Of a stretch of 64,000 bases of DNA, positions 24,001 through 56,100 are shown in pieces. The DNA is from Mytilus edulis (lineage: Eukaryota), in contig NC_092348.1 in the NCBI RefSeq assembly GCF_963676685.1, forward strand, positions 992,001 through 1,056,000, read 5' to 3'. A program made the translations under genes and the position numbers. The notes beneath the pieces are model-generated. The model was not told the origin of the DNA and ran no database searches. It saw only the letters and a list, made by a program, of their open reading frames with translations. Positions within the stretch are counted from its first letter, which is position 1; the number at the start of each line of letters is the position of its first letter.

Positions 24001-25399
24001 TGAAGGGGAGGTAATCCACAGTCATTGTTACAGACATCCTGAACAGTTTACTGGTAAGAGAGTTGTCTGCCTTGGTGCTGCTGCTTCTGGACAGGACATC
24101 GCTGTTGATGTGTCTTCTTGTGCTAAATATGTAAGTAAATTAACATCAAACTTGACTGAAGAGACATTTATTGTGGAAATGGTCCATCTTGTTAAAGGGG
24201 ATATAAACAAGTTTATTTACTCCTCAATGTTTGATGTACTGCAGGGTAGGGGACCATCCTTTAGTGAGTTCACTCGCACTTCTAGTTTAACTGGCAAATC
24301 TGATTTTTTATTTCAAACAATTTTAAATATTAAAAACAAATTTTTTTATGTCAGCATGAGTAAAATTTAAATCTACATTTTTTTAATTTAAGGTTTGTCT
24401 GTTAAAGCATTGACATTATTAATAATAGTATTATATATCCTATATTTTCAGTTATACATGAGTCACAATAAAGCCGTGTTACAGACAGTTGATATTATTA
24501 ATAATAAATAGTATTATATCCTATATTTTCAGTTATACATGAGTCACAATAAAGCCGTGTTACAGACAGTTGATATTATTAATAATAGTATTATATATCC
24601 TATATTTTCAGTTATACATGAGTCACAATAAAGCCGTGTTACAGACAGTTGATATTATTAATAATAGTATTATATATCCTATATTTTCAGTTATACATGA
24701 GTCACAATAAAGCCGTGTTACAGACAGTTGATATTATTAATAATAGTATTATATATCCTATATTTTCAGTTATACATGAGTCACAATAAAGCTGTGTTAC
24801 AGACAGTTTTACCAAATAATGTTGAACAAAGACCTGGAATTAAACAACTGAACAAACATTCTGTGATATTTAAAGATGATAGTGAAGAGGAAATAGATGT
24901 TTTACTCCTGTGTACGGGCTATCTATATAACTTCCCTTTCCTGTCAGAGGATATAGGTTTACAAGTAGAGGAGGAGAGAATATGGCCTCTTTATAAACAT
25001 GTGATACACACACACTACCCTTCATTGTCATTCATAGGTATATTAAAGACAATTTGTCCATTCCCAGCGTTTGATATGCAGGTTAGGTTTGTAATAGCAG
25101 GAATTGATGGGTCTATGCCACTCCCATCTGAAGAAGAAATGAAAAAGGACATTGATAAGGATTTCAAACTTAGACTGTCAGAAGGACTACCTGTTAGATA
25201 TGCCCATAATATGGGTCCAAAACAATGGCGTTATAATGATGGACTGGCAGAAATGGCCAAAATTAAACCTCTTCCTCAAGTGGTTGAAAAGCTGTATGAT
25301 TATGTGCATGAAACTCGTGTGAAAGATATAGCTGGTTATAAATCTGTTAACTATAGTATTGAGGGAGACAAGGATATGTTTAAAGTTGTAGAAACATAA
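21016..25399 (+). CDS. Flavin-containing monooxygenase (FMO GS-OX / senecionine N-oxygenase-like), 5 coding exons: 21016-21215, 22192-22330, 22914-23047, 23953-24130, 24770-25399
   Basis: FAD motif VAVIGAGAAGL, GGTW, SSMYKNLR-TNLPKEVMAF, VMVCNGHY, FMO fingerprint FEGEVIHSHCY (FxGxxxHxxxY), NADPH motif GAAASGQD, DVLLLCTGY; canonical splice sites. Confidence 0.95.
23084..23311. mobile_element. MITE in FMO intron 3
   Basis: Inverted termini GTCTCATTGGGG / CCCCAATGAGAC. Confidence 0.6.
23507..23696. mobile_element. Tc1/mariner-type MITE with TA TSD in FMO intron 3
   Basis: TA|CTGTAAATCAACCTATTTTCG ... CGAAAATAAGTTGGTTTACAG|TA. Confidence 0.7.
24410..24808 (+). repeat. Tandem repeat (79-bp unit x5) spanning the acceptor and first 13 codons of the last FMO exon
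   Basis: TATATTTTCAG|TTATACATGAGTCACAATAAAGC repeated, with the AG ending at 24451, 24532, 24611, 24690 and 24769. Confidence 0.95.
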
Positions 25400-26384
25400 C
25401 AAAAAGTGTGCAACAGAAATAAATATATATATAATGTGTAAACAAGTGTGCAATATTTATATTTATATTTATATTTATATAAAGTGTGTAAACTACAGTA
25501 CATGTGTATTGGTAGATCTCATCTGCTGTTATTCAAAACGAAATTAAACAGTTTTAACAGGAGATTGAGTTTATATGCTTTGCCTACAAAAGTAACATTT
25601 AGTTTTCAAGATAATAGGCAAAAGAGAATATAATGTGGAAAATTATGATTTAAGGACACTTACTCATGAAATAGTTGATCATCACTTTTAGCAATGTTTA
25701 CCTATTTGTAGATATTATTTGCTGTTTAAAGTTTCTGCTATCTATTACCATTTCAAAATAATACATGTAAGTGCCCAAAAAATTGGCAAAAAAATCAGTA
25801 ATGAGCAATATCACCAATAAGGAGCTGATCATGAAATTCAGTATTTTGTCTTTTTTGTAGATCTTGTCTTGCTGAATAATTTAACTATTTAAATTGTCTT
25901 GTCATTTATTAATTAGCTTTATTTAAAAACTTGTCTTTTTATAAATACTTTCCAAAAAATACTGATAGAGTTATGCATTTTCACGTTCAAAATTAGAGCA
26001 GTGGTCCTTCCTTAAGACTCCAACATTAAGTGTTGACTGAAGTATATCAATAGGATTCAATGGATGTTCGATCTATCACTAATCAATCATCAATGATATC
26101 CTTGCAACAACTGTTGCAGTATGTGGAATGTTAAACATATTGTATCCGCATTACATTAATTTTTATTTGTATCACTAAATATATGCTTCAGTCGATAATC
26201 AAAATATATTAAATCAGCAAACTGTACCATTTTAAGTACATTTTTATGCAAATTACGAAATAAAAGAGAGGATGATTTCAATGCATATGACTTATTAATC
26301 ACACACCACTTTTTATGACTGTATATAGTAAATATGTAAGTGAAGAAGATATTTTGGTTGATGTAAAAATTTTAAGATATACGA

Positions 26385-27382
26385 TTGCCAACTCTCAAAC
26401 AGAAACCAATTGAAGTACGAATTTGATAATGTGTTCTGTTGTAATTCTGTTGCCAATGAGAACACTCTCAAACAGAGACCAATTGAAGTAAGAGTTGGTA
26501 ATGTGTTCTGTTGTAATTCTGTTGCCAATGGGACAACTCTCAAACAGAGGCCAATTGAAGTACGAATTTGGTAATGTGTTCTGTTGTAATTCTGTTGCCA
26601 ATGAGACAACTCTCCACCAGAGGCCAATTGAAGTACGAATTTGGTAATGTGTTCTGTTGTAATTCTGTTGCCAATGAGACAACTCTCCACCAGAGACCAA
26701 TTGAAGTACGAATTTGGTAATGTGTTCTGTTGTAATTCTGTTGCCAATGAGACAACTCTCCACCAGAGACCAATTGAAGTAAGAGTTTGGCAATGTGTTC
26801 TGTTGTAATTCTGTTGCCAATGAGAACACTCTCAAACAGAGGCCAATTGAAGTACGAATTTGGTAATGTGTTCTGTTGTAATTCTGTTGCCATTGAGACA
26901 ACTCTCCACCAGAGACCAATTGAAGTAAGAGTTTGGTAATGTGTTCTGTTGTAATTCTGTTGCCAATGAGACAACTCTCCACCAGAGACCAATTAAAGTA
27001 CGAATTTGGTAATGTGTTCTGTTGTAATTCTGTCGCCAATGAGACCACTCTCCACCAGAGGCCAATTGAAGTACGAATTTGGTAATGTGTTCTGTTGTAA
27101 TTCTGTTGCCAATTAGACAACTCTCCACCAGAGACCAATTGAAGTACGAATTTGGTAATGTGTTCTGTTGCCAATGAGACAACTCTCCACCATAGACCAA
27201 TTGAAGTACGAATTTGGTAATGTGTTCTGTTGTAATTATGTTGCCAATGAGTTAACTCTCCACCAGAGACCAATTGAAGTAAGAGTTTGGCAATGTGTTC
27301 TGTTGTAATTCTGTTGCCAATGAGACAACTCTCCACCAGAGACCAATTGAAGTAAGAGTTTGGCAATGTGTTCTGTTGTAAT
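26385..27382. repeat. Minisatellite, 73-bp unit, ~13-14 copies
   Basis: Unit AATTGAAGTACGAATTTGGTAATGTGTTCTGTTGTAATTCTGTTGCCAATGAGACAACTCTCCACCAGAGACC; accounts for the repetitive ORFs at 26313-27438. Confidence 0.95.
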
Positions 27383-27413
27383 ACATACTTGAACTTGTCA
27401 GCAGTAGTGTCTT

Positions 27414-27950
27414 GGATTACCTTAGCTGTATTTGGCAAAACTTTTAGGAATTTTGGTCCTCAATTCTCTTCAACTTCGTACTTTTTTTGGCATTTTTAAC
27501 TTTTTGGGATTCGAACGTCACTGATGAGTCTTCTGTAGACGAAACGCGCGTCTGGCGTATATTCTAAATTTAGTCCTGGTATCTATGATGAGTTTATTTA
27601 CCACAACTGGGTGGATGCCACTGCTGGTGGAGATTTATTTCCCGAGGGTATCACAAGCCCAGTAGTCAGCAGTTTTTGTGTGGACATGAATGTCATTGAT
27701 ATGGTTATATTTATAAATTTAATTACTGTTTACAAATTTTAGAATTTTTTGAAATACTAAGGCTTTTCTACCTCAGGAATAGATTACCTTAGCTGGATTT
27801 GGCAAAACTTTTAGGAATTTTGGTCCTCAATGCTCTTCAACTTCGTACTTTATTTGGCCTTTTTAACTTTTTTGGATTCGAGCATCACTGATGACTCTTT
27901 TGTAGACGAAACACGCGTTTGGCGTATGTACAAAATTTAGTCCTGGTATA
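27414..27950 (+). mobile_element. Non-LTR retrozyme-like tandem (367-bp period, ~1.5 units) carrying hammerhead ribozymes
   Basis: GATTACCTTAGCTG...CTGATGA...GAAAC...TGGCGTA repeated with a 367-bp offset; further partial copies at ~21430-21740, 32030-32228, 44460-44670 (-) and 45715-45960. Confidence 0.8.
27516..27557 (+). ncRNA. Type I hammerhead ribozyme (intact core)
   Basis: CGTCA-CTGATGA-GTC-ttctgta-GAC-GAAA-C-gcgc-G-TC^TGGCG: stem I CGTCA/TGGCG, stem II GTC/GAC, short stem III with palindromic loop, GUC cleavage triplet (cut after 27552). Confidence 0.9.
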
Positions 27951-29542: not shown

Positions 29543-29679
29543 GGTTTAATGCTTCATTTACAGCATGGCAAATTGTTTAGTTTTGTTTACTATAGTGCTT
29601 TTCCTTTTTTGTGCTTATTGTATCTACTTAACTAATCTCTTTGTGCATTTCATGTTAGGATGTAGTTGTTGAATGCTAT

Positions 29680-32600
29680 TTAATTAGTTTCATCTAGCAG
29701 CATTAAGAGAGGCACAATTATTGTTGGGAAACAATATACATTGACGCCATTTCTCTGACCAAATATTTTTATAGCTCTTTTCAATATTCTGGATGTCCAA
29801 ACTCTTTTGTCCGTATCATTCTGTGGCATCTGCGTCCCGTTTTGTGATGCAAACTTGCAAATACGGTTATCTATCAAAGAATACGATAATATTGGATCAA
29901 GCTCGTAGAATAGAGCGTTTTTTTTAACATGTATGATGTTATTAATTCTGGTTCTATTCCATCTGTTTTGGGTACACGACTAAGTAAACTTTTTGCCAAG
30001 GTATACCCGTCTTTCAGTTTGGAAAGTATGTTCCGTAATATCAATTTTTCTATACAGAAAAATGATAGCCGTGCATTTTTCTGTCTTACGATAATTTCCC
30101 ACTTGAGGACTTCTGAACTTTGTACAAAATGTTCAAATTTTGGGGGTATGAGATCCTTCAATCCATTCGGTAAATCGTCCAAGACGATTTTGGGGACTAA
30201 ATCGATAATGATGTCCAGGTCGGGGTCGGTCGGGGTGCCGATGTATGCCAAATGTAAAGGTGCAACCAAGTTTTTAGGAGGCGAGGTTTCTTTGTTATAA
30301 CAGGTTCTCCAGTAAAACAGGAGTTCTTCCAAAAATGAGCTGTGTTGAAATATGTTATAAACGGTAGCATTGAATGAGTTCATAAGCGCTTCATTTAAAG
30401 TTTGGTCATGTTCTTGCAATTCTTTTACCTCTTTCCCAAATTCCCTTTCTTGTGTTTCAAGACATAATTGAACTTTGTCTTGTACAGTGAAACAGTCAGC
30501 TCTGATGGACTGACTTATAGTCGTCAACTTGAACAGATAATCAAACTCATACTGTGGATTGATTTTTGTGCCCTCAACCGTGCTTCCAGCTAATTCAATA
30601 ATAGAAGTAAGTAGAGGATTATGTTGCTCTAATTGATTCTTGAGCCTTTCAACAAATTGTTGAACCTTTTGCATAATTTTCTTAACAAATTTGTTCTGTG
30701 TGTTCACTGGTTCTCTAAAAATTTTTGAATTTTTTTTTTAAACTTTAAGTAGGCCGTACAGATTTTTAACAATAATTCTAATTTCAGTTTGTCTTTCTTT
30801 GGTATTTCTCTACCATTTAAGATAAAAATGGACGGATCAAGTATATATCTCAGATTTGACAAGTTTTCAGTTTCGGGCCAGATATTCCAGGCTGGTTGAG
30901 TCATAGCATAATTTAAACATTCCCTACCGAAATTATCTTTCTGGATTTAGCTAATATATGTTTAACTACATCTGTATACCTCAACCAACAAGAAAAGTGT
31001 AGAATAGTCATGCCGTTGATATCTTTTGTGTTTATATCAATTTTGTGCTTCTCCACTATTTTCAACGCGTCATTATCAAACATAGAATTTTGCTTAATAG
31101 AGGCTACAGGATGAATTATCAGTCCGTGGATGAAAGGAAACGGCTAGTTTGAATAGATGATTCGATCATCCCAGCATATTTTGTTAAAAATTTATCTAAC
31201 TCGACTGTGTTTAAGTTGATTATGATAAAACGAAGAGCTGTACGACTAGTATTTCTACAATGTCAAGAATACTAGGTTGGCCTTTAATATCGCGTATTAG
31301 GTGTAGAGGGGAACCATAAAAGAACCGATCCAAACAATCGCCATAAGCACCCCGCTCAAGGAACAAATTTAAGAGTGGCACGTTAGATGTGGTGACAGCC
31401 CAATGTAGTGGACAATATATCGTAGCATTGCTATTGACCTTGTAATCTTTGATCAGCTCTTCCGCTAGATCCATAACGTCAATCTCCGATGCTTTTTTTT
31501 TTAGAGATACTTGGTTCAATTCTACAGAGTTCACATAGCAAATGTAGCCTTAACTTTATGACACTTTTCTCGGTACGTTCTTTCGTGTGTAATAACCAAT
31601 GTTTAACTTTTTTTTATTTGACATACATGTGTCTCAGCGGTTGGAACCTGTGCGTGTGTATATAAAAAAAAACATGGAGCTTGTAACTGTTGTTCAAATG
31701 ATTCCAAAATGGAATTCTCGCCTGCGAGTGTTTTTTCGTCAGCATATATATTTCAATAGAAGCTCCCATATTTCAAGTTGTACATCCTTGTCACTAGCCA
31801 GACCTATGCTTGATTTGCCATTTAACTTGGCGTCGATGAAAGTTTTTAGGTATGCGTTGTCGACCAACTGTTCAACCATTCTAATGTTATTTTCACGGAC
31901 GGCTTTTGGATCTTCTTTGTAAGCGATTTTTTATCATCAGCCATCCTCCATTATTTAGGATTTGTTTCTGATAAATTATATATTCAAATCAACATTGAAA
32001 AAACATAAAACATCTATATCATTCTTAAGGATTTTCTTATCCCAGACATGGACTACCTTAGCCGTATTTGGCACAACTTTTTGGAATTTTGAATCCTCAA
32101 TGCTCTTCAACTTTGTACTTGTGTGGTTTTATGAATATGTTGATATGAGCGTCACTGATGAGTCTTGTGTAGACGAAACGCGCGTCTGGCGTACTAAATT
32201 ATAATCCTTGTACCTTTGATAACTATTAGGAAAAGAGGATAAAGAGTAAGAACGTTTCGAATCTCAAGTCAATATATTCTGTTTGAAAAACTTCTCTGAT
32301 AACTCCTGGCGGATGAGAATATGTTGTTGCTATAATATCATGCCTTTTACAATAGAGGAGGCATTCAAGAAAATTGAGAATGAAAATGAAGAATGTGTCA
32401 AAGAGACAATAACCGGACCAAAGAGCAGGTAAAAAAACGTAGGCAACAAATGGTTATTAACACAGCGAGAAAATCTCGCGCCCAGACGTCGGTTTCAGCT
32501 GGCCATTTTTCCTTACACGACAAAACCAAAACTAAATTCAATTTCACTCATACAACCAGGAACATATATACTGTTCCCTGATAAACATGTGTATAGTCGG

Positions 32601-32786
32601 TAATATTATGATAGTTTGATTAATTAATTATTGGTTGCTTAACGTCTAGTGGCAAATATTTCATTCAGTCAGGTCGAAATATGTTAGTTTGCACTTTGAA
32701 TCTTAAAAGAAAGGAATATAATAGGTTACCTGAAATATTTTGCAAACCAATCTGAAAAAAGTATGCATACCCACGTTAGCTTCCAT
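29680..32786 (-). pseudogene. Ankyrin-repeat + cGAS-like (Mab-21) nucleotidyltransferase pseudogene (copy A); exon 1 32786-32771, exon 2 31967-~29680
   Basis: Paralog of 37166-41559 with the same MEANV micro-exon; ANK fragments (CPLHWAV, GSPLHLI) and NTase GSTVEGTKINPQYEFDY...IIIDLVP...RLSF...ITSYMLKK; early in-frame TAA, several frameshifts and internal deletions. Confidence 0.88.
32150..32191 (+). ncRNA. Type I hammerhead ribozyme (intact core), in a retrozyme fragment within intron 1 of cGLR copy A
   Basis: CGTCA-CTGATGA-GTC-ttgtgta-GAC-GAAA-CGCGCG-TC^TGGCG. Confidence 0.88.
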
Positions 32787-35128: not shown

Positions 35129-35670
35129 ATATACATTGAACGACAGATATATGTGACGTATAAAATTTTCTGACGTCTGACACGCGAATCAATGTTTGTA
35201 GATAGATGATTTGTGTTCTGTTCAATTGTTCCTTTTAAAATTGTTACACGATGATGGCTGCTGTACCCATAGTTTGACTATTTATTATGTCTGTTTAGTT
35301 CACACATCATTGTAAATATAACAGAATTTGATGAGACTGTCATCAAAGTGAGAGGGTTACCGCTATAAAACTAGGTCTAATCCACCATTTTTTTACATTT
35401 GAAAATGCCTGTAATAAGTCAGGAATATGACAGTTCTTGTCCATTCGTTTTTGATGTGTTTTGTTATTTTATTTAGCCATGTAATTATGGACTTTCTGAA
35501 TTGATTTTCCTCTACGTTCAGTATTTTTGTTATTTTACTTTTCATTGTGGTAAAGGCACGACTCTTCGAGGTAACGGTCGCATTCTTCGAGGTAGGAACT
35601 ATCATCAATCTTCGGGACATTGCTACTGAAAAGAACCAACTATTTTGTTGCACGTAAGAATGCCTAAGGT

Positions 35671-36330
35671 TTATTTAGTATCGGGTGTGAACAGAATGCT
35701 CGCCAGTTCGTTCTATGGTCGAAACTGAAATCAGTCAACGCATATGATATAATCATAGGCGACAAAAAAGCATGTGTACCTCATGGAATTGTGTTTGCAT
35801 TGTTGATGATAATACAAAGTCAACAGCTCATACATTCGATCACGTGTTCAAATACATTGTAATGAAATCCAGCCTCAGCAAACTTCTGAAAATCTTCATC
35901 GTCATCATCTTCAGTGAACAGATCTGAATTATCAAACTTCTTATGGGGTACTCGATACGGCGGGAATCTCTCTGGAGCTAATGTTTGTTGCACATAGAGT
36001 TATAGCGGCATGTAGCTTGCAAGATATAACATTGGTTCAAGGTCGACAGCTGATAAAGGAATATGCCATCCACATTGAAAGCACTGCATGTCAGGTTCAG
36101 CTATGCATACACATCCTGCCAGAGCAATCGTCTCTCTTCTACTCTGATCCTCTATGTTCTTAAGTACCCTCCTCTTCAAATTCTGGTAGAAATGGAACTT
36201 GCATTTTACTTGCTGCTTTATTTAACAGTGCATAAACGACACTACCAAACATATCATTGATGTAGTAGGTATGTGACGGCTTGTATTCTCCACTCACTGA
36301 ACAAGAAACAGACCACACATTACTTTTAGG
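35671..36330 (-). pseudogene. Truncated TIR-BIR gene pseudogene (copy A; only the BIR-containing 3' half remains)
   Basis: High nucleotide identity to 47265-48020 (e.g. GTATCGGGTGTGAACAGAATGCTC, CAGCTCATACATTCGATCACGTGTTCAAA, CATTGATGTAGTAGG) with several deletions; TIR-coding part absent. Confidence 0.9.
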
Positions 36331-37165: not shown

Positions 37166-40100
37166 TTACGGCAAACAGTCCTTGAAGGCTCTTTTATTAG
37201 TTTCATCTACCTGTTCGTTTAGAAGCTTTAAACACTGGTTCAGGACTCTGACATACTGGTTACATCCGAAGTCATCATTACCTGCCATGAAAATGAGAGG
37301 CACACTCATTGCTGGAAAACAATATATATTGACACTATCTTCCTGATCAAATATTTTTATTAGTCGTTTCAATATTTTGGACGTCCAGTTTCTTTTATCT
37401 GTATCCTGCTGCGCCATCTGTATCCCATGTTGTGTTGAAAACTTACAAATGCGGTTATCTATCAAAGAATACGATAAGATTGGATCAAGCTCTAGGAATA
37501 GTTCGTTTTTTAAAATGTATGATGTTATGTATTGTAGGAATGGTGACACTCTATTCATTTCGGGTACACAACCGACTAAACATTTTGCCAAGGTATATGC
37601 ATCTTTCAGTTTGGGCTGTAAGTTCCTTAATATCATTTTTTCTATAGAGGAAAATGATAATCGTGCATGGTTCTCTCTTACAATAATGTCCCACTTAAGG
37701 TGTTCTGAATTGTTTACAAAATGGACAATTTTTGGGGGTTGAGATCGTTCATTCCATTTGGTAAATAATCCAAGACGATAACTGGTACCAAATCGATACT
37801 TATGTCCAGGTTTGGGTATGTCTGTGTGCCAATGTATGTCAAACATAAAGGTGCAATTAAGGTTTGAGGAGGTGAGGTTGCTTTGTAATAACAGGTTCTC
37901 CAGTAAAACGGAAGACCTTTCCAAAAGGAGTGCTGTTGTAATATATTGTAAACTGCAGTATTGAAGGATCTAAGAAGGGCTTCATTTAAAGTTTTGTAAT
38001 CTTTTTCCAATATGTGTACCTGTTTCCAAATTTCACTTTTTTGTGACACGAGACATAACTGAACTTGGTCTCCGTAAATAAAACGGTCAGCTTTAACGCA
38101 CTGACTTATATGCGTCAGCTTGAACTGATAATCAAACTCGTCCTGCGGATAAATTTTTGTGCCCTCGCTTGTGCTTCCAGCTAATTCAATTGTAGAAGTA
38201 AATAGTACGTTATCTCTGTCTAAGCAGTCTTTGACCCTTTCAACAAATTGCTGAACTTTTTGCATAATTTCCATAACAAATGTGTTCCGTGTGTCTACTG
38301 GTTCTCTAATTTTTTTAACTTTTTTTTTTTTAGCCTTAATATAAAAGCCGTACAGATTTTTAACAATAAATCTAATTTCAATTTGTCGTTTTTTGGTATT
38401 TCTCTTCCATTTGAGAAAAATATGGACGGATCAAGTATATACCGCAGAGTCGACAAGTTTTCAGTATCGGGCCAGATATTAGGGGCCAGTTCAGTTATAG
38501 CATAGTATAAGCATCCCCTACCGAATTTATCTTTCAAAAGTAAAGGTAGTTTAGATTTGGCTAATATATGTTTAACTACATCTGTATACCTCAACCAACA
38601 AGAAAAGTGTAGAATAGTCATGCCGTTGATATCTTTTGTGTTTATATCAATTTTGTGCTTCTCTACTACTGTTAATTTCTCGATGATATCGTTTTGATCA
38701 TCCCGTCTTACCTTTAACGCATCCTTTTCCAGCATAGAATTTTGCTTAATGGATGCTACAGGATGAACTATCAGTCCATGGATGAAAGGAAATGGCATAG
38801 ACTGACTTGATGATTTAATTTTCTCACTATATTTTTTAAAAAATATATCTAACTCGACTGGATTTAAGTTGATTATGATAGAATGAAGAGCTGTATATCC
38901 CCTTTGATTTCTCTCAATTGTTAACGAAGCCCCACCATCGACTAGTATTTCTACAATTTCCAGAATTCTAGGTTGGCCTTTAATGTCGCATATTAAGTGT
39001 AGAGGGGAACCATTAAAGAACCGAACCAAACAATCGATATTAGCACCATGTTCAAGGAACAAATTTAAGAGTGGCACGTTAGATGTGGTGACAGCCCAAT
39101 GTAGTGGGCAATATATCGTAGCATTGCTATCGAGATTGACCTTGTAATCTTTGATCAGCTCTACCGCTAGATCCTCCACATCATCCGCCGATGCATTTAC
39201 TGTAGAGATACTTGGTATAATTCTACAGAGTTCACACAGAAAATGTAGCCTTAACTTTATGACGCTTTTCTCTGTTCGCTCTTTCGTTAATAGTAACCAA
39301 TGTCTAACTTTCTTTATTTGACATACATGTGTCTCAGAGGTTGGAACGTGTGCGTGCGAATGTAAAAAACATGGAGCTTCTAACAGTTGTTCGAATGACT
39401 CCAAAACCGGGTTCTCGCCTGCGAGTGTTTTCTCGTCAGCATGTTTCAATAACAGCTCCCATATGTCAAGTTGTACATCCTTGTCGCTAGCCAGATCTAT
39501 GCTTGATTTACCATTTAACTTGGCGTCGATGAAAGTTTTTGGGTATGCGTTGTCGACCAACTGTTCAACCATTTTAATGTTATTTTCACGGACGGCTTTC
39601 TGGAGCTTCTTTGTAAGCGATTCTTCATCATAAATCCTCCGCTTTTTGGGGTTTTCTTCTGTAAAAAAATATAGATATTCAAACCAGCATTGAAAAAAAC
39701 ATTTATATCATTCCTTAGAGAAAGAGGGAGAAAAAGTCAAAACGTTTCGAAGCTCAAGTCAATCTGTTCTGTTTGAGAAACTTCTCTGATAACTCCTGGC
39801 GGATGAGATTATTATGTTTGTTGTTGCTATGTCATGCTTTTTACAATAAACGAGGCATTCAGTAAAATTGAAAACAAAACTGAAGAATGTGTCAAAGAGA
39901 CAACAACCCAACCAAAGAGGAGAAAAAACGAAGCCCACCAATGATTCTAAACACAACGAGAAAATATTGCTCCCGGAGGCGTGTTTCAGCTTGTCATTTT
40001 CCAATGGAAACAAACTGTGCCCTTCTACTTCCGACTTGTTTCTTTATTATTATGAGGCTGACTTCAAGAAAAATGATAAGAAGTTAGCAATATCCTTTAA

Positions 40101-41559
40101 CTCTACTTTCCGCTATATAGATGATGTTCTTTCACTAAATAATTCAAAATTTGGTGACTATGTGGAACGCATCTATCCCATCGAGCTAGAGATAAAGGAT
40201 ACTACAGATACAGTTAAGTCGGCCTCATATCTTGATTTACATCTAGAAATTGACAATGAGGGTCGGTTGAAAAGAAAACTTTACGACAAAAGAGATGATT
40301 TCAGCTTTCCAATTGTGAACTTTCCATTTTTAAGTAGCAACATTCGATCAGCACCTGCATACGGGGTATATATCTCCCAATTGAAACTTTATTCCCGTGC
40401 TTGCATTTTCTATCATGATTTTCTTGAAAGAGGGTTGCTGCTCACAAGGAAGCTATTAAACCAAGATTTCCAAATGGTGAAGTTGAAATCATCCCTTCGT
40501 AAATTTTACGGACGCCATCACGAGTTGGTTGACCGTTCTGGAATAACCGTTTTACAAATGATATCGGATATGTTCCTTATGTCGTAACTACAACACCCTT
40601 CACTATTGACGGATTTGAACTACCGAATTAGACTATTTACCGGATTTGTTATCACATAAGCAACACGACGGGTGACGCATGTGGAGCAGGATCTGCTTAC
40701 CCTTCAGGAGAACCTGAGATCACCCCTAGTTTTTTGGTGGGGTTCGTGTTGTTTATTCTTTAGTGTTCTATGTTGTTTCATGTGTACTGTTGTTTGTTTG
40801 TCTTTTTCATTTTTAGCCATGGCGTTGTCATTTTGTTTTAGATTTATGAGTTTGACTGTCCCTTTGGTATCTTTCGTCCCTCTTTCCGTACACGACAAAA
40901 CTGAAACAACAAAAATCTAAAATTAAAAGTACAAAATGTTGTGTGATAGACTCATATGAATAAAACTAGTCATAACAAGAATGTGTCCATGGTAAACCAA
41001 TTGCACTATCATTTGCTATGTTCAATGAACCTATAAATATGGGTCAAAACTCTAATTTGGCATTAAAATTAGAAAGATCATATCACAGGAAACATGTGTT
41101 TTAAGTTTCAAGTTAATTGGACTTCGGTTTCATCAAACACTATCTTCAGCAAAAACTTTAACATGAGAAGGACGGACGAACAGACAGACAAACAGACAGA
41201 CGGACGGACGAACGAACGAACGCACAAACCATAAAACATAATGTCCATAAAAATATTCATAATAAAATTAGTGTTCACCAATTTCATTCGTACAACCAGG
41301 AACATAGATATTGTATATTAAATATATTATACCCAGATACAACATGTATATGATATGTACATGTAGTTGTTATCATTATGATAGTTTGATTGATTAATTG
41401 TTGGTTGCTTAAAGTCTATTGGTAAATATGTCATGCATGTTCAGGACGAAATTTGTTAGTCTGAACGATGAATCTTAAATGATAGGAGTATACTATGTAA
41501 GCTATGATATTCTGCAAATAAATCTAAACACAAAATTGCATACCCACGTTAGCTTCCAT
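37166..41559 (-). CDS. Ankyrin-repeat + cGAS-like receptor (cGLR, Mab-21 NTase) gene, copy B; exon 1 41559-41544 (MEANV), exon 2 39658-37166; two frameshifts at homopolymers (A12 at 38320-38331, C5 at ~37734-37738); ~836 aa if repaired
   Basis: ~6 ankyrin repeats (LQKAVRENNIKMVEQLV, CPLHWAV...LLNLFLEHGANID, GSPLHLI, GYTALH, DINTKDINGMTILHFS, KDKFGRGCLYYA), then NTase motifs GSTSEGTK..QDEFDY and ISIDLVP (catalytic E/D/D intact) and Mab-21 C-terminal motifs RLSFSSIEK and ITSYILKN. Gene versus young pseudogene is unresolved. Confidence 0.8.
39995..40870 (+). mobile_element. Penelope-like element reverse-transcriptase 3' fragment, antisense in intron 1 of cGLR copy B
   Basis: FRYIDDVLSLNN...IYPIELE...SYLDL...LYDKRDDFSFPIVNFPFLSSNI...YGVYISQL; degenerate second fragment at ~34305-34600. 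Confidence 0.85.
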
Positions 41560-42859
41560 TTCCGTTCACTTTATTGCATTGAAGTGTTGATCGATGAGTA
41601 GTCTAGAACCTTTTTTAAATCATTACATCAGTAAGAATCCAACTGGATCATTTAAAAAACATATTTTCAAATAAAAGATATGATATCATCTGCCTTCTCA
41701 ATATTAGTAACAGTGTGCACATTTTTTATGAATGTAACAGTATTAATTTTGTTTACCTATAAAGTAACTTTACGCTCTACTGAGAAAGTGGTCACTTGGT
41801 GGTGTATTCATGGTATTGGAATCCGATAAAACAGAAGAGAATAAATAAAATTATTTTAAGTCGATTTACATAAACGTTATAAACATAAAATCTGTTGAAA
41901 TTTTGTCGACATATATCAATTAAAACACATATAAATACATATAACACACACCACAAAAAATGGTAGTTTTTTTAGTAGTATGAAGTCTTCAGTTATTTAA
42001 ATGTTTAAAGTTGAATAACTTCATTGGTACACAATTCAATGCACGAACTTAATATTGTTTTGTCGCTTTATTCACAATACATCTTTCGGATCACATGACG
42101 TGTGGACAGGATACATATGATAGAAAAATAATGTAAATTAAAAACAAATGTCAGATAAAAATAAATTTATTTGGCTTCTGTCATCGGAGGATGATTCTGT
42201 AATAACTTACTCTATTTGAATGATATAAAAAGAGATCAGAAATATTAAACATTATCATCATTAGAACAATATGATATAGACATCGCGTCTGGCGTACTAA
42301 ATTATATTCCTGGTACCTTTGATAACTATTGTTGTCATTTGGTCTTAGATGGATAACTGTCTCATTGGCAACTACACCACATCTATTATTTTTGTAATGT
42401 ATAATCAGGATTTATTTTGATTGCAGGGTGAATCCTGATAGTAAAACAACATTGTTAGTAGTAAGGATTTTATAGTTTGAATAGATACTTATATATATAT
42501 ACAAATAGTACATCTCTGGTCTAAATTAGGGAAATAAGCCTGATGTAAAAAATACTTTTTAAAATCCAATCTCTCTCATTTAATTGTAGAAACCACTTAA
42601 GACACTGCGTTAAAACGATGATTTTCATATAATATTTTAATAACATTATAGTATACCACAAATTTAACATGTGACTATAAAAGTGAGACATGAATGTGTA
42701 TCATTTCTGATTAAGAATAACTTGTTTTTAGTTTAACAGCCATCCAGTCACCCAAGCAAAAACCGATGGAGTTACATGACTTGACACATTATAAAAACTT
42801 TATAGTTTGTTTTAGTTTGTATATGGGGTGCTTGGTTTTGAAAATGGGTGAGTCTTGTA

Positions 42860-47264: not shown

Positions 47265-48794
47265 TTATATAGTATCGGGTGTGAACAGAATGCTCGGCCA
47301 GTTCGTTCTATGGTCGAAACTGAAATCAGTCAGCGCATAAGTTATAATTGTTGGTTCTTTATCTGTAGACCTTTGTGCATTAACCGACTTAATAAAGTCT
47401 ATTCCTTTCTTTTCCAGAACAAATTTACATGTAGGTGACAAAAGAGCATGTGTATCCCAGGGACTTGTGTTTGCATTGTTGATGATGATACAAAGCCCAC
47501 AGCTCATACATTCGATCACGTGTTCAAACCCGTTGCGATAAAAACCGGCATCAGCAAACTTCTGAAAATCTTCATCTCCATCATCTTCCGTGGACAGGTC
47601 TGAATTATCAAACTTCTTATGGTGTACTCGATACGGCGGAAATCTCTCTGGAGCTAATGTTTGTTGCACATAGGGACATAACGGCATGTAACTTGCATGG
47701 TATAACATTGGTTCAAGGTCCATAGCTGACAAAGGGATATGCCATCCACATTGAAAACACTGCATGCGGTCAGGTTCAGCTATGCATACAAATCCTGCCA
47801 GGGCAATCGTCTCTCTTCTACTATGGTCCTCTATGTTCTTTAAAGTTTCTCTTCTCTTGTCTATATCTTCAAACTCAGGCAGAAATGGAACTTGCATTTT
47901 ACTTGCTGCTTTGTTTAACAGTGCATAAACGACACTACCAAACATATCATTGATGTAGTAGGCATGTGACGGCTTGTATTCCCCACTCACTGAACAAGAC
48001 ACAGACCACAAATTACTTTTAGAATGGGGGTTATACGCATCCATAACACATTTCATCAACTCCAGTAAACCTTTACTCATCTCACTATCACCAAACTTTT
48101 CCTCCTCAGTTTCGAGGAAATCATCGGTAAATCCTAAACTAATTGTAGTGTTCAGATCACATAGAAATCCACAGTCTTCGCAAGCTTGTGGAATATTCAA
48201 TTTAGTATGTTCATTAATATGTTTATAGAATTCAGGCAGATCAATGAGAAAGTTCTTATTCCTGGCTGTTATCAACACTCCATACAGGTCCATGTCCATT
48301 TGTTGGAGGAGAAGGCCCTTCGATGAAACAAAATTAGATGCTCCGGTATTCGCATGTAAGATGGAATAACTTGGTATTATTGTCAATAGTTCAGTTTTTA
48401 GATTAGAAACCCAATTCGTGTTAAATCTTATAATTGATGTGTCCCTAAGACAAAATAAACCGTTGACGGATGAAACTTTGCCATCTGTAATCAGTGTGAT
48501 GATTTTTCGCCTTATACTTGGTTCCGTGCAGGCGGACTTTATCATATGGCTGCTTTTTTTGTTTACAGATAAACTTTTAGAAAATATAATCAGTACTTTT
48601 CTGGACTTTGCGACGAGACTAAATGCAGTATCGAAAGTGTTCGTGCCTGGCATGCCATTTTCTTGTAAAGAACTAAAGGAAATATGCTCTGATTCTAAGA
48701 CCGGAAGTATATCATCCCGAGCTTGTTCATCACTGTCGTCATAAAACACAAATAATTGATAATGTTCTGATCTCTGTACGGGACTTGCGTCCAT
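47265..48794 (-). CDS. TIR domain + uncharacterised central domain + two BIR domains (TIR-IAP-like protein, 509 aa, single coding exon)
   Basis: aa ~11-137 TIR-like (YQLFVFYDDSD...ILPVLE...GMPG...KSRKVLIIFS); BIR1 ALAGF..C346-X2-C349-X16-H366-X6-C373; BIR2 FADAGFY..C429-X2-C432-X16-H449-X6-C456 followed by FVLEKKGIDFI; no RING; uninterrupted ORF. Confidence 0.88.
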   Translation of the reverse strand: MDASPVQRSEHYQLFVFYDDSDEQARDDILPVLESEHISFSSLQENGMPGTNTFDTAFSLVAKSRKVLIIFSKSLSVNKKSSHMIKSACTEPSIRRKIITLITDGKVSSVNGLFCLRDTSIIRFNTNWVSNLKTELLTIIPSYSILHANTGASNFVSSKGLLLQQMDMDLYGVLITARNKNFLIDLPEFYKHINEHTKLNIPQACEDCGFLCDLNTTISLGFTDDFLETEEEKFGDSEMSKGLLELMKCVMDAYNPHSKSNLWSVSCSVSGEYKPSHAYYINDMFGSVVYALLNKAASKMQVPFLPEFEDIDKRRETLKNIEDHSRRETIALAGFVCIAEPDRMQCFQCGWHIPLSAMDLEPMLYHASYMPLCPYVQQTLAPERFPPYRVHHKKFDNSDLSTEDDGDEDFQKFADAGFYRNGFEHVIECMSCGLCIIINNANTSPWDTHALLSPTCKFVLEKKGIDFIKSVNAQRSTDKEPTIITYALTDFSFDHRTNWPSILFTPDTI

Positions 48795-51654
48795 GCTTTA
48801 TCACGTGCATTCCAATCAGCTACATGTGTTCAATCCATGATTGGAATCTTTAAACAAAAAACATAGAAAAAAAGTTAAGAGAAAAATTTAAAATTAAATA
48901 TTTGCGTCTTCGATATATACATGATTCTTGTTTTAGTTGTTATTGGCTTTGAACTACTAGTAGCTGTCAGTAACGAAGAACACTCTCAGATCAGTACTTG
49001 ATGTCTGTTTTATTTTTGTGATGTATAAGTACCGGTCCACGTCCACGCTGTGGTTTTGTTAGATGCTGATCTATTTGTATTCATCTAATGAGTTATGCCT
49101 TTTTCAACTTTTTGTTACAGTTTGTACTCATGTTGTATTGTTACATCACTATTCCAGATTAGGAGAGAGGTAAGGGCGACCGCAAACATATTTGACGCTA
49201 TCCCATGTTGTACTCTACTAAGTCAGGAGCATATAATTAAGTGGTTGTCGTTTGTTGCTGTACATTATATTTCCCCCATTGTTTTGTATACATAAATCAG
49301 GCTGCTTGTTTTCTTGTTTGAATTGTTTTACATTTGTCATTTCGGGGCCTTTAATAGCTAACTATGCGGTATGAGTTTTGCTCATTGTTGAAGGTCGTAC
49401 CTTGATCTATAATTGTTATAAACTTCTATGTCATTTGGTCCCTGGCGGAGAGTTGGAGTTGTCTCATTGGCAATAAAAACTTGCTAAAATCCTTTCTTTA
49501 TTATATAGTAATGTATCTGTTCGAAGTAATAACATCTTTTGAATCAGTTATTATTTTCGTTTGTTCTGTGGCAGATCTCTGATGGCCTAATAATTCACCA
49601 GAGTTCATGAAAAGTGGTGGTCCGAAGGTTTTGACCACCAAAATGTTCAATGGACTGACACAATTTTTGTATTTCTCAAAATGAATAATAGTATGATCGA
49701 GAAGACAATCAGATAGTGTCTATATCTGTGGAGTAAGATGCAAACATTTGTTTCGGGATGGGTTTCCTTTCAACGTGGAATAATAGATATAGGAAGATGT
49801 GATGTGAATGCCAATGAGACATCTCTCCATCCAAATAACAATTTATAAAAGTAAACCATTATAGGTCAATGTAAGGCCTTCAACACGGAGCCTTGGCTCA
49901 CACCGAACAAAAAGCTATAAAGGGCCCCAAAACAAACTACTAGTGTAAAACCATTCAAAGGGGAAAACCAACGGTCTACACTTCTTTGAGATGAACAATA
50001 AGTTTTAACTTATGATAACGGATGTGGTCCGAGAATGATAAAAATGTACAAGAAATGCATTTGATGACGTAAATTGGTCTTTCATTTTTGGTTGAGACTT
50101 AAAACGACACTTTACTCAGTATAACCATATTTACATGTTGCAAGAACAAAGGAGACTATGTTATTAAAAAATTGCTTGAATTATAACTTATAATTTCATG
50201 AAATACACCATTACATGTACCGTTGCAACGTGGTTTTCGTGTACTAAAAATTCTCATTTCTAATTATAGAAAAATAAATACCCTTTTTATTTCTCTATCA
50301 TTAACAATCTTGAATTGAGAGGGAAGTAAAAGTTTGGATAAAAAGTATTTCAACAAAATCAAAAATGATTTTATATAAATAACTATCTTACCGTTTCATG
50401 CCACAAAGTGTGAGGACAAAGCCATTTTGTTTCTTTCAATGAGCATGCCCAATGTATCAATAGAATTACTCTTGCATTAAATACTGTATGATATATTTAT
50501 AAACTTAATTTTTCCAATCAATAAAAGATAAGTAAATATTAATATTGTGTCTTATTCTGACGAACGGATTTATACAGTTTAAATCACGGACATGTATCTG
50601 GTGTGGTTGGATCTAAAAAAGAAATCATCTACATACTAAGTGGTTTCTTAGAGCCATTTATCACACCGTGAGAAAGAGACGGCTGATCAAACATATTTAA
50701 TAACATTATAGTATACCACAAACTTGATTCAACTAAATAACATGTGTCTATAAGAGCGAGACATAAATGTGTAGCATTAATGATTATACATAACTTGTAT
50801 TTAGTTACCTGTTGGGTAATTTTAAAATTTCCCATTTTTTTGTCCAAATTCAGTCACCCATGCATAATACGACTGATGACTCGACATATACAGACTTTTA
50901 AAACAGTATATAATATAGTTTGCTTTAGTGTGTTTATGGAATGTTTATTTTTGTAAATGGGTAAGTCATTTATATACATTGCTACTTACTTTATTTTCAA
51001 ATGTTCTTACATTGGTTTATCATACATTTACGATAGATCATAACATAGTGTGTCCTGTGGGTTTTGATACATAATTCACATAGTTTTTTCACTGACACCC
51101 CACCCCCCTCTTAACTTAATTTGGGAAGAATTGACTTACCAATAGGGATATATGTAAAAATTGATTTTAGATATACAAAACTTGTTGAATTTTAACCCCC
51201 CCCCCCCGACCCCAAACTATTTGATTTAAGTTTTTTTTATCCTACATCGATCTTTTGATGTCGTCCCTAAAGAACAAAATCAATTTATTTGTACATCCTC
51301 CTTTTCTTTCATCGATATTAAACTCATATAGATAAGAAATAAGGAAAGTGGATAAGTTGGTAAACCAGACACAGGTCTTGTGACACGTTGTTTGTTTTTT
51401 TCTTTAGCGTATTGCTACTTTTTTTTAACAAGGAAACACACGACTGTAGTTAGTTGCGCCTCTTTAACATGTTCCTTAATTAAGGCGAAAATACTAAAGA
51501 TAATAAAACCTTGGAAAAGTATCTAACAATATTATTTTTCCTAACTGAACTCATCAGTTGAAAGAGAACTAACAATGAACAAGCAAAACACGACAAACGT
51601 CAAAAATGCAGTATACAAAAAAGGGCACAAGACATTTGGGCTATACCATATGCA

Positions 51655-51950: not shown

Positions 51951-53112
51951 CCGATTTTTCTTTTCTTTAAAAGCTTAACTTGTCATTATAATTTATATTC
52001 ATCACAGTACTGCCAACGAAGTGAAAAAAATATATATAAAAATAAAATAAATGAATGATTCGGATAAGATGGTTCAATTTCGAACCGGTTTAGTGTTAAA
52101 CCACAAAGAAGGGCTAGAATAAAATTCATAAATGTTAACATCGAACTAATAGGAGATGAGCATATTTAGCGATATTAGTCAAAATAATCAGACAAGAAAG
52201 GTCGCGTACGTTTCTATATGCATGGTTAGGGGTAGATAATTTATGTATTAGAACGTTTGAACCCCATGGCTGTCAAGAGATCATTTTCTATTTTACTTCG
52301 ATAGGACTATGCCCATATATATACGACTGAAAAGTTATGTTATAAAGTCACTATTTATTCAGGACTTTGATCAAGTTTGAAGTTCAATTATATATGCAAC
52401 CGTACGGACTTTAACAATTAGAAAAACCAATACCTTATTATATTTGGCTATAAAAGGCTATAGATTTTGAGAGAAACCTTTTACAAAAGACAAATAAATA
52501 AAATCAAATTGCATTAAGTAATATCACTCAGGCAAATGTCTACATTCTCGAGCAGCGGTTCATTAGTAATTTTACAAATCAGTACTTGTATGTTAACATA
52601 AATATTGACCTATAGAAAGCAAGAGTACTTTTGTAGTTTGTTTCATATCATGATATTGTATTAAGTCACTTCCTCGTTATGGGATGGGACTTGTCTGCAT
52701 ACACCATATATGAAGCTCCATAAAGGGAGGGGATGTCCCTCCTTAATCTACAGAGTTTAATCGTTTGTATCTCAACCAATTACCCCTTTAATGTAATTGT
52801 GGTTCTGTAAATAAATGCTGATGTTGTATTTCATATATATGACTAGAAAAAAAGATAAAGTTTTCTTATGCATCTGACAGCAGCTTGGGCAATTTTCCTC
52901 ACAAATGTGTAATGAAATAGTTGGGTGGTATTAAAAAATTCTTAATACACTCTATAACTATAAACACAATTTCACCAAAGTTGTGATATCATATTGATAA
53001 AAAAACACCGGACATCCACTAAAAAAAAACTATTTGTACAGAAAAACAAGTATATCTTTTCTTCAGATGCAGAACCTCAACTTTATAATTTGAACTAAAA
53101 CCAATACTAATC

Positions 53113-56100
53113 ATGACCAAGAAAAAGAAACAAAACAATGATCCAATGAAAGGACAGGTAAACAAAGGAATGGACACGTCAAGTGTGTTCACGATCGAAT
53201 CGAGTGCGTCCAATTGGCGCGAGTCAAGGGAAACACTCACAACAGATACACACACGCCAGTTCAAATGTCTCGAAGAAATTCTTTTTCGTCCGCAATGGA
53301 GAGTGGAAGTATATTTTCTGGCAGTATTGGTTCCGTGCCATCAAAGGCGAGTGCAGCATTATCTACGGACGCATTGTTATTGAAGCAGAAAACAGAAGAT
53401 ATTGAAGGACAATCGACTGAACGTGAATCGTGGGATAATAAAGTACAATATCTCTTAGCCGTCGTCGGGTTCGCTGTAGGACTTGGAAATGTCTGGAGAT
53501 TTCCCTACCTAGCACAGAAAAACGGAGGAGGTAAGTCAGGCTACACGAATTGTCTGTTAGGAATGGTATAATCTATGTGTGGTGGCATGAGATACAAGTT
53601 CCTTTATTATAATTGTTCAAATGTAATTTTATTTCTATGAATAGTCAGAGATTCCATAAAGAACTATTACAATATAAGTTTATAAACGGGTTAATAATAT
53701 AATTCCATTGATTCAGATAATTTTCTGTTTATATAAGAAAACAGATATGGTATGCTTACCTATCTGAAAACTCTTCACTCGATCAGTCAATGCCATAGAA
53801 ATTAACGACAATGAGCAAAACCATTGCCACAAGACTGGAACAACAAACTTTGATAGTGGTACTATTCCTCCCTCTTGGAGATCATAATCATTTCCATGAT
53901 AGTCCTTTGGCCTCTGGATCATTATTTTCTCTTTCTCTTTGTTTTCTCATATGTGTATTTTGTTTTTTCTGTTTTTAATTGACCCTGTTACATCAATGCA
54001 AATTAAAACAACATTAAACTTAGCATAAAACGTTTCAAAAAGGAATAAAATGCGAAGTCATATATTATATGACTAATTTGATGGGTGTGTATAACCTGTA
54101 AAATATATGCTTATTATCTTCTGAGAGAAGTTACAAAGAAGGCGATATCACATAATGGTTTATAATAACCAGTTTTGGCAACCACTTTGCAATGCTCTTT
54201 ACAATGCTCATCATTTGAAAGGAAAATATATGACAAAGCAAATGTTTAGAGACCCCAAAAAGTATTATAAATCTTTCAAATAATACCCTTCATGTGTTCA
54301 ACAGCAAGTTTGCAGTATCATTTATATCTAATTTACTTATTGGTTGTGTTCAGTGATTTTATACAACACTGTCAAACTCACTTTGAAATTTTTCAATAAC
54401 TTTTAAAATGAGCACACAGAAGAAAATACCAGTGTCATATTATGGTGAACTCTATGTCATAGAAGACATAGTTATGAAATATATGCCACTGAACCATCAA
54501 CAATTTTACAGTTCACCATTTCTGTTTATTTTTTAGAAAGTTTACAATTTTGAAAATTTTTAGTGATATTCATGCTTTCCAAGTTTAAAAAATGTAAGGT
54601 AATTTCAGACTTATACCTTTTAATTACAGGTGCTTTTCTTATTCCATATGTCATAATGTTGGCAATCGAGGGCATTCCTTTGTTTTACCTTGAACTTGCA
54701 GTAGGTCAAAGGTTACGGAAAGGAGCCATAGGAGCATGGAATGAAGTTAGTCCCTTTTTAGGCGGGATTGGAATAGCTTGCTGTTTTGTCTCGTTTTGGG
54801 TAGCGTTATACTATAACACTATTATTGCCTGGTGTCTGTATTATTTAGTGCTGAGTTTCCGAGCTACCTTACCATGGGCAGCATGTCCAGATCCGGTACC
54901 AAAGGAGTGCAATGTAAGTATGGTATAGGTATACAATATTGTTAGAGGCCAGCTGAAGCTTGCATCCGGGTGCGTGATTTTCTAGCTGCGTTGGCGACCC
55001 ATCGGTGGCCTTGAACTTTTTTCTTCTCTTCTGTCGGGTTGTTGTCTCCTTGACACATTCCCCGTTCCCGTATACTCTATTAAATGCATCATTTTCTTTT
55101 CGTTCCTGACTACAACTAGATTGACCTTACCCTGAGTGTACGACGGTGCTCCAGTGGCGGATCAAGGAAAAAAAGGGGGGTCCGAGTGTACGACGTGGTG
55201 CTCATAAAAATACCAACAAACTGACAGAGCCTATCTGCTGATATGACAAACTCATCTAGAGGTGTTTGTTTTATGCTTCATACAAAACAATGTTTTGTTT
55301 AGAGCCATATTTACTCAATCTTAAAGTGGCAGATCGATACATCTACAGTAAATTTAGATGTTCAAACATCAAAATCCCTGTCGAAGTTGGTCGGTGGAAA
55401 AATACACCAAGAGAAAATCGTATATGCTGTCACTGCGATTCAAATACCATTGGTGACGAATATCATTATTTTTTTGTATGTTCCAATAAACAAATTATGT
55501 CTTTAAGAGAAAGGTATATACCTACATATTACATAAAAAATCCTTCCCAATTGAAATTTATTGGTCTATTATCACACTGTAACGTGCCAGTGCTAACAAA
55601 AGTGTGCATGTTTCTAAGACATATTGAAAAAAATATTTTCATAATTCATAGCATGTTACTATAATTTCTAACCACGTTGCAATTAAGAATTTTGCAAACA
55701 AATCAACCAAATATATTTCAGTTTTATTGTATGATATCAATTATTAATCTATTGTGTGACTTTCTTGTAAATGTATAAGTATGTATGTAATTTTTAATGT
55801 ATAATTTTTATCCTCTTGTAGCACCATACGTGTGCCTAAGTTGTAATAAATTGTCTTGTCTTATCTTATTATTTTCTATTAATGAAATTTGACAAATTTA
55901 TGTTGACCCTATAATTTCCGTTTTATAGATGAGCAGTCCGACAACTTATTTCTGGTACAGAAAGACTTTAGATATTTCGTCATCTGTAGAGGAAACTGGA
56001 AACCTGAACTGGTGGATATTGGTTTCGTTGTTCGTAGCTTGGCTTATTGTGTTCATGTGCATGATTAAAGGGATTGCATCTTCCGGTAAAGTAAGTTATT

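Follow-up and report, generated by a model that had tools for sequence, protein, structure and literature searches.

On the minus strand of the window (the whole 64,000-nucleotide stretch of Mytilus edulis DNA analysed here) an ankyrin-cGLR gene, copy B, is divided among three stop-to-stop ORFs (39707-38295, 38430-37714 and 37969-37166). Is this a working receptor gene whose frame was lost in the assembly, or a gene that is genuinely broken? We consider it probable that the window carries a real null allele of B, one member of an ankyrin-cGLR tandem pair, that B is broken in every haplotype readable across its 3′ half, and that an intact sister type likely performs the function.

Joined to a 16-nt exon and read through, as the original prediction proposed, the three ORFs yield an ankyrin–NTase–helical-lobe (ANK-NTase-Mab21) frame of 836 codons with no further stop. 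The coding first exon (41544..41559, minus strand) supplies MEANV plus one base ahead of a GT donor, in agreement with the MEANVEENP start of RefSeq P0006. Its 16-mer, ATGGAAGCTAACGTGG|GT, is present twice, at 41559-41544 in B and at 32786-32771 in the paralog copy A, as had been predicted. A loose end of an X16 contig at 39659 matches 30/30 letters of 41545-41574 and shows exon 1 spliced to the acceptor AG at 39660-39659; exon 2 begins at 39658. An X11 loose end at 39665 (29/30 letters of 41764-41793) reveals an alternative upstream first exon (41757..41811, minus strand; outer limit estimated from 48+7 unaligned letters) that has no in-frame ATG and uses a donor GT at 41756-41755 with the same acceptor. 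In RNA-like runs the promoter of B is in use and its transcript is spliced. The GT..AG intron (39659..41543, minus strand) consists mostly of high-copy repeats, judged by repeat depth in bins 39852-41491; a decayed RT-like ORF lies inside it (40587-39850). A literature search on this locus found no paper.

Exon 2 (38295..39658, minus strand) encodes the ankyrin-repeat half (Pfam Ank_2, E 9.5e-18) and ends in a premature stop right after break 1, so that exons 1 and 2 together give 459 aa. RefSeq XP_071172342.1 (M. edulis, 459 aa) is 100% identical to this product and stops at break 1; automated annotation has thus fragmented the gene, as anticipated, and retains only the ankyrin half. The NTase lobe (37741..38319, minus strand), whose family profile matches cGLR1/cGAS, holds GS (G500-S501, 38178-38173), E513 (38139), D515 (38133) and D628 (37794), and the claim that GS, EFD and IDL are intact in B therefore stands. 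The helical (Mab-21 C-terminal-like) lobe with the stop (37166..37738, minus strand) is delimited by the ORF and by the fold of the sister protein P0010.

The frame had been expected to be restored by one base in the A12 run (38320-38331) and one in the C5 run (37734-37738), with copy A, itself dead, as the template; the second position does not survive closer comparison, and the first is not the only one possible. Break 1 is a 38-nt linker containing T4, A12 and A7 (38308..38346, minus strand) that is out of frame and whose run length varies among haplotypes. Between Ala (CTA) and Arg/Gly (REP) B has these 38 nt where P0001, P0009 and P0101 have 11 codons. The break need not sit in A12: homology (C-T-A-Y-x-K) places the frame switch at T4 (38346-38343). 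By contig arithmetic an unlisted net change near A12, assigned to the skipped segment 38306-38335, is +1 in X6, which brings the linker back into frame, and +2 in X4. Break 2 (37739..37740, minus strand) is one lost base adjoining the C5 run and not a C5 slip: X4, X6, X15 and X16 (four of the six runs with a listed contig across the site) carry an extra base and a change at 37739, and X1 and X2 match the window. The X1 and X2 contigs over 37463-37910 and 37882-38589 agree with the window in every letter and run through both breaks without a gap (depth 108.5 and 81.1 in X2), although the libraries of these two runs are without record and may be the source of the assembly itself. Because both breaks are confirmed in contigs, we file the window copy as a broken allele and not as a working cGLR. 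A continuous frame holding both lobes is absent from the window's B and present in P0009 and P0101.

The frameshifted B is not one individual's accident. All five informative haplotypes are broken, mostly by different lesions: the window; X4 (-1 at 38447, net +2 near A12); X6 (-1 at 38447, -7 at 38027); M. galloprovincialis VDI44950.1/VDI44949.1, which ends at SIFF and has its tail out of frame after YILK; and Logan P0018/P0013, which end at QHSF, ahead of a Trp codon, and were put on one contig solely from the equal size of their contigs. Lesions taken from protein records depend on the assemblies and gene models of others. P0091 and CAG2190299.1, an M. edulis model that omits the entire NTase, stand outside the count because the position of their lesion could not be located. 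Intact B was found in none of the nine members of the three B-containing clusters and in none of the five matches of a 371-2000-aa search. The contig comparison covers seven distinct runs out of the 17 main ones, X18-X24 (share ≤0.06) being outside it; missing coverage of break 1 in X11, X15 and X16, and of the 3′ half in X11, is not counted as evidence.

B alleles are 97-99% identical to one another, and B-versus-A dN/dS is 0.27-0.59 outside a block in which the two copies are identical; B therefore worked until recently. Contig depth is a hint that the 3′ half of B is hemizygous: it falls to 81-108 from 146-168 in the 5′ half in X2, to 7.1 from 12-14.6 in X4 and to 7.8 from 12.9-14.4 in X6, whereas in X1 (5.7 versus 7.3-7.9) the halving is not clear. 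The last 500 bp of B stand at 10.3-10.4 in X4 and X6.

Could B still work in part of the population, the window carrying one of several young null alleles in a balanced or recent polymorphism? Break 2 is open in four runs, X15 contigs run over 37341-38205, 38407-38768 and 38823-39659 without a frameshift, X16 shows exon 1 spliced, the catalytic residues are retained, dN/dS is below 1 and most lesions are private to a single haplotype. The parts of B covered in the RNA-like X15 and X16 are free of frameshifts, with the contigs of both runs ending short of break 1. We nevertheless regard a working B as improbable, given five broken haplotypes out of five and no intact B among the nine cluster members or the five long-protein matches. 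Moreover, T4 (38346-38343) is off the 11-codon register of all intact relatives; neither X4 nor X6 lists an indel there, and this lesion may be older and shared.

That B is kept as an ankyrin-only protein of 420-460 aa, acting on the intact receptor as a decoy or inhibitor, with catalytic loss tolerated or favoured, appears distinctly unlikely. Every lesion in B-phased sequence does lie at or 3′ of 38447, the ankyrin half is open in both phased cases (window, P0008), and junction-dependent decay should spare a transcript whose stop falls in its last coding exon. Six lesions in the 3′ 51% correspond to p of about 0.02 if independent, but they are not fully so, two of them falling in a slippery run. 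Against selection on the ankyrin half, P0096 (98% like the B ankyrin half, although its end could be a contig end) and P0100 both stop at ELDIF, in a T6/A6 run near 38838, so that lesions reach the ankyrin half as well, and conversion with the intact hybrid described below accounts for the open 5′ half with no need for B to be under selection.

The original prediction left open whether the gene bears consensus errors or is a null allele, and only the null allele stands. An intact gene with two homopolymer errors in the assembly consensus has very little left to recommend it: break 1 adjoins the A12 run and there are just two lesions in 836 codons, yet both breaks recur in X1 and X2 with identical letters, break 2 lies outside any run, and other animals carry different lesions. 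Since these contigs cross both sites with 0 differences, assembly error is refuted to the extent that contigs allow, and we reject it. Programmed -1 ribosomal frameshifting or polymerase slippage on A12, giving a short and a full-length product, is scarcely credible: break 1 needs a -1 shift and the run holds a heptamer (A AAA AAG) in the ankyrin frame, but there is no downstream structure (z = +1.27; 182/200 shuffles fold equally well or better), the run region differs among haplotypes, intact relatives without a conserved site read straight through in frame, and the helical lobe would still be lost through break 2.

Copy A (29650..32786, minus strand), a dead tandem paralog sharing the first exon of B and 79.6% identical in DNA over 2.4 kb, has about nine lesions. 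It contains eight indels that shift the frame and a stop, and its 35-nt linker is out of frame. A 104-bp block of B (38560..38663, minus strand) is identical to 30950-31053 in A. Intact relatives exist, among them P0009 (Logan, 783 aa) and P0101, which is M. trossulus XP_063442831.1 (784 aa, on a 91-Mb contig). The N-terminal half of P0009 falls in one clade (99/98) with three B alleles, which it resembles at 96.1-97.7%, and its C-terminal half is 66.9% like B, matches P0007 in 257/259 positions and clusters with A and P0101 (100/99); the switch from B-like to A-like falls at the 104-bp block. P0009 comes from a single Logan contig, which may have been chimerically assembled over this block; P0097, from a separate source, has the same junction. 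An intact third copy was not found in the assembly: a DNA search matched B and A only (two matches), and protein searches returned distant paralogs only, the nearest 35-36% on C4. A decayed partial copy (35565..36329, minus strand) of the TIR-BIR gene at 48797-47265 (self-BLAST 88% and 82%; Pfam BIR E 2.9e-17, TIR_2 E 0.008) indicates that the duplicated unit included this neighbouring immune gene.

Our verdict is that A and B are a decaying, recombining tandem pair. The identical block suggests gene conversion or unequal crossing-over between them, which would keep the ankyrin half of B about 96-98% like that of the intact hybrid while its catalytic half decays. The window's allele could yield no more than the 459-aa ankyrin fragment, which most likely lacks function. 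More tentatively, and on balance doubtfully, dead copies might donate sensor variants, the B ankyrin half being joined across the 104-bp block to a catalytic half from the downstream copy to rebuild working ankyrin-cGLRs, a shuffled population repertoire of receptors that do not sense nucleic acid.

The proposed cGLR identity is backed by profile and fold. The residues GS, [DE]h[DE]h and h[DE]h occur in order in B (LAGS, 11 residues, EFDY, IDL), and the same GS/EFD-type/IDL-type order is seen in 9/9 relatives checked. LAGS and the spacer of 110 residues before the third acid (99-118 in relatives) fall outside the written h[QT]GS, 50-90-residue pattern of Li et al. (PMC9980059). That pattern is not strict, since Pd-cGLR, which these authors found active, carries HCGS with about 129 residues in the spacer (hand count). 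At Pfam E ≤ 0.01, Mab-21 is found in 24 of 37 relatives and Mab-21_C in 11 of 37, with no Mab-21 match in either of B's own two catalytic pieces. Single-sequence PDB searches are uninformative (P0005 finds ankyrins only, P0010 reaches cGAS at E 0.065) and a profile was therefore needed; that of alignment A1, which includes both B pieces, covers residues 11-332 of 8GJW at E 1.1e-30. Fold homology to cGAS/cGLR was established on the sisters P0010 and P0009 and not on B itself: the model of P0010, 68% identical to the B 3′ half, has pLDDT 81.6 and Foldseek E 6.2e-11 and superposes on cGAS with Z 23.3 and rmsd 3.4 Å over 305 residues, and that of P0009 has pTM 0.83.

B's family thus resembles Cv-cGLR1 (PDB 8GJW) and vertebrate cGAS (e.g. 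5XZB) in profile and fold, but differs from them in its 15-19% identity, its N-terminal ankyrin module and a catalytic pI of 5.0-6.7 that is not basic. The catalytic part has pI 6.72 in B, 4.96 in P0009 and 5.00 in P0101, and 5.17-7.59 in six other full-length relatives (the P0001 value is that of a truncated domain). Nucleic-acid-sensing cGLRs have pI above 8.5 (PMC9980059, section 6), and B's family lies below this value. The acidic domain (pI about 5) of the intact sisters favours a putative non-nucleic-acid trigger and is shared with the non-nucleic-acid candidates of that study.

Ankyrin-fused cGLRs are already published: Table S1 of Li et al. (PMC9980059) includes M. coruscus CAC5362428.1, and 218 cGLRs were counted in M. 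galloprovincialis (PMC9980059). B's family shares with them the ANK, NTase and helical-lobe architecture, the GS, EFD, IDL/VDL triad and a bivalve expansion; the window copy differs in being a null allele. Its sub-clade was not found in the six supplementary files of PMC9980059 by five accessions or four peptide motifs. XP_063442831.1 and P0009 belong to the same locus family as B (N-terminal halves 85.6% and 96.1% identical, triad intact) but have open frames and an A-type catalytic half that is 67-69% identical to B's. Dispensable, hemizygous and pseudogenised immune genes are known in Mytilus (Gerdol et al., PMC7653742), in a text where ankyrin and Mab-21 do not occur; B resembles those genes in its haplotype-level decay, and in hemizygosity of its 3′ half as far as the contig-depth hint goes.

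As a single gene B matters little: mussels have hundreds of members of this family, and the copy here is a null allele. It does show that homopolymer-adjacent frameshifts can be genuine differences between haplotypes of mussel immune genes, and 'repairing' them would therefore invent genes. XP_063442831.1 and P0009 are natural intact members of an acidic clade of ankyrin-cGLRs that the accession and motif searches above did not find in the published catalogue. They offer direct test cases for the activator of cGLRs sensing neither DNA nor RNA, and for a possible effect of tandem-copy module swapping on ligand or product. For the intact protein we lean towards a mechanism in which the ankyrin repeats would bind a protein or other non-nucleic-acid cue, binding would close an active site of cGAS type (E, D, D with Mg2+), and the closed enzyme would make a cyclic dinucleotide for STING. 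The genome contains five STING-LBD matches above the cut-off, two of them with an internal stop.

Copy B, the minus-strand ankyrin-cGLR gene at 37166..41559, is carried by the window as a null allele; it is the decaying member of a recombining tandem pair, and its neighbour is copy A (29650..32786, minus strand). The ORF listing of the window gives copy B as three minus-strand stop-to-stop frames (39707-38295, 38430-37714 and 37969-37166). When exon 1 is joined to exon 2 from 39658 and an X is placed at both breaks, 836 codons are read, with the catalytic residues LAGS (G500), E513, D515 and D628. The feature is genuine and was rightly recognised in the original prediction: the three ORFs, both homopolymers (A12 and C5) and the first exon of 16 nt common to both copies were located in the sequence. 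Automated annotation does fragment the gene, RefSeq XP_071172342.1 (Mytilus edulis, 459 aa) being 100% identical to exon 1 plus the first frame and stopping there, so that copy B is truncated. In a Pfam search the first frame matches ankyrins (E 9.5e-18), and the second and third match no domain. A DNA search of the genome returned two matches, copy B itself and neighbour A at 80%.

Contigs of seven distinct sequencing runs among the 24 listed (X numbers) were aligned to copy B. Two contigs present in both X1 and X2, 37463-37910 (448 letters) and 37882-38589 (708 letters), show neither a differing letter nor a gap; their depths in X2 are 108.5 and 81.1, respectively. Since span equals length exactly, A12 and break 2 are present in reads; as X1 and X2 are possibly the assembly's own source (libraries unrecorded), this is support at the read level, not the population level. 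The breaks had been put down to consensus errors or a young null allele; these contigs reproduce them, which argues against consensus errors and for a null allele. Break 2 (37739..37740) had been ascribed to a slip in the C5 run (37734-37738). It is open in X4, X6, X15 and X16, which have one additional base beside the run and a change at 37739; the window has therefore lost one base next to C5 rather than slipped within the run.

The linker at break 1 is 38 nt long, versus 11 codons in the related proteins (P numbers) P0001, P0009 and P0101. The frame downstream reads Y-I-K-A-K.., like their Y-x-K-S/N-K.., and the sequence therefore favours a T4 insertion (38346-38343) over loss of one A. No indel is listed at T4 in X4 or X6; by arithmetic X4 is +2 and X6 +1 within 38306-38335, an interval lacking a base-level listing. 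We infer that the T4 insertion is probably an older shared lesion.

Copy B is broken in all five informative haplotypes: the window, X4 (-1 at 38447), X6 (-1 at 38447, -7 at 38027), M. galloprovincialis (VDI44950.1 stops at SIFF and VDI44949.1 finishes in the out-of-frame tail KRTIPRA) and Logan (P0018 stops at QHSF, ahead of a Trp codon, and P0013 resumes further on). This count omits P0091 and CAG2190299.1, a model that skips the NTase, as uninformative. No intact copy B occurs among the nine members of the three B-containing clusters or the five long-protein hits. X15 and X16, however, count against all copies being broken, as they are free of frameshifts in the parts covered, although break 1 lies outside their cover in both. 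Depth over the 3' half of copy B is about half that over the 5' half in X2, X4 and X6 (not clear in X1), a weak hint that the 3' half is present once and the 5' half twice; hemizygous dispensable genes are described in mussels (PMC7653742).

The RNA status of X16 and X11 is guessed or unrecorded, but a spliced junction means that the sequence is not genomic. The X16 contig ends at 39659 with 109 loose letters, the 30 shown matching exon 1 at 30/30. X11 joins the same acceptor to a different exon near 41.8 kb (29/30 letters), an alternative non-coding first exon at 41757-41811 (minus strand). It bypasses the ATG exon, so translation would begin at Met 39572, the annotated start position in P0009, P0099 and P0101.

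Copy A is itself dead, with eight frameshifting indels, an out-of-frame linker and one stop (11 non-triplet indels aligned, minus one belonging to copy B and two alignment ends). dN/dS between the copies is 0.41, 0.27, 0.44 and 0.59 in four segments, and both were thus constrained during much of their history. A minus-strand TIR-BIR frame of 510 codons (47265-48797; TIR-like domain E 0.008, BIR in two stretches E 2.9e-17) is found upstream of copy B and a decayed partial copy (35565-36329, minus strand) upstream of copy A, so that a block of immune genes was duplicated as one. A loose end of X6 at 37437 carries A-like sequence near ~29819 with 8/30 mismatches to copy A, a hint of a further paralog type.

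P0009 (Logan, 783 aa) and P0101 (XP_063442831.1, M. trossulus, 784 aa, on a 91-Mb contig) are open from the ankyrins to the end. The N-half of P0009 is identical to three B alleles at 293/305, 295/305 and 298/305 and falls in one clade with them (99/98). The C-half, 242/362 identical to copy B, clusters with copy A and P0101 (100/99). The trees had seven and nine rows with the distant P0011 omitted, and a separate analysis including it agreed. The change from B-type to A-type sequence occurs at a block of 104 bp that the two copies share without a difference (38560-38663 = 30950-31053). Although P0009 may be a chimera of assembly, the junction recurs in P0097, which comes from a separate source. 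Two neighbouring gene models of a further M. edulis assembly, CAG2190299.1 (B-type) and CAG2190298.1, match the halves of P0009 at 298/305 and 257/259, as would be expected from deletion or conversion between neighbours. P0100, P0097 and P0010 lie on ENA contigs of 2709 nt; if these are a single contig, it has an A-like start, a B-like middle and an A-type end, is broken twice and suggests that the copies have exchanged sequence by gene conversion. P0001 (CAC5371959.1, the M. coruscus ortholog) is open across the linker and ends out of frame just past the break 2 position; it may likewise be broken or mis-assembled. In the boldest reading, which is possible but rather unlikely, broken copies supply ankyrin modules for rebuilding working receptors.

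A profile including both copy B pieces matches cGLR1 (8GJW, E 1.1e-30) and cGAS, and 24 of 37 relatives have a Pfam Mab-21 match. Predicted models of the sisters, not of B, adopt the cGAS fold (P0009, pLDDT 82.7, pTM 0.83; P0010, pLDDT 81.6, Foldseek E 6.2e-11, with 305 residues aligned to cGAS at Z 23.3 and rmsd 3.4 A). The catalytic-part pI is 6.7 in copy B and 5.0 in P0009 and P0101, all under the 8.5 that marks nucleic-acid-sensing cGLRs in PMC9980059. That paper also describes acidic cGLRs with unknown ligands, bivalve expansions (218 cGLRs in M. galloprovincialis) and ankyrin-fused cGLRs, so the architecture of copy B is already published. None of five accessions and four motifs of its clade appears among the matches listed for six supplementary files (PMC version), and literature searches, as far as their sources were accessible, found no study of this locus. 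An intact protein would likely recognise a non-nucleic-acid cue through its ankyrins, synthesise a cyclic dinucleotide and signal through STING; the genome has five STING-LBD matches.

The window's allele can only produce the 459-aa ankyrin part. This fragment might act as a decoy, as the clustering of copy B lesions 3' of the ankyrin repeats would suggest, but conversion accounts for that clustering, and two proteins, P0096 and P0100, terminate at ELDIF within the ankyrin half. A programmed frameshift at break 1 is unsupported (z +1.27).

The nearest other paralog, L006 (G000:C4:82850559-82854668), has a 914-codon open frame with ankyrins and full triad, is 35-36% identical to copy B and P0010 and resembles CAC5425843.1 (913 aa). 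Five further ankyrin-cGLR-like loci were found, L008 (C8), L009 (C10), L010 (C9), L012 (C1) and L011 (C4); four join ankyrin-like and NTase parts in a single open frame, and in L011 these parts stand in two separate frames, as in copy B. Elsewhere in the window, tandem-repeat arrays yield long open frames at 26313-27459 (minus strand) and 61511-61879 (plus strand), and plus-strand exons at 23855-25399 and 53089-54928 resemble, by eye, those of a flavin-containing monooxygenase and of an SLC6-type transporter.
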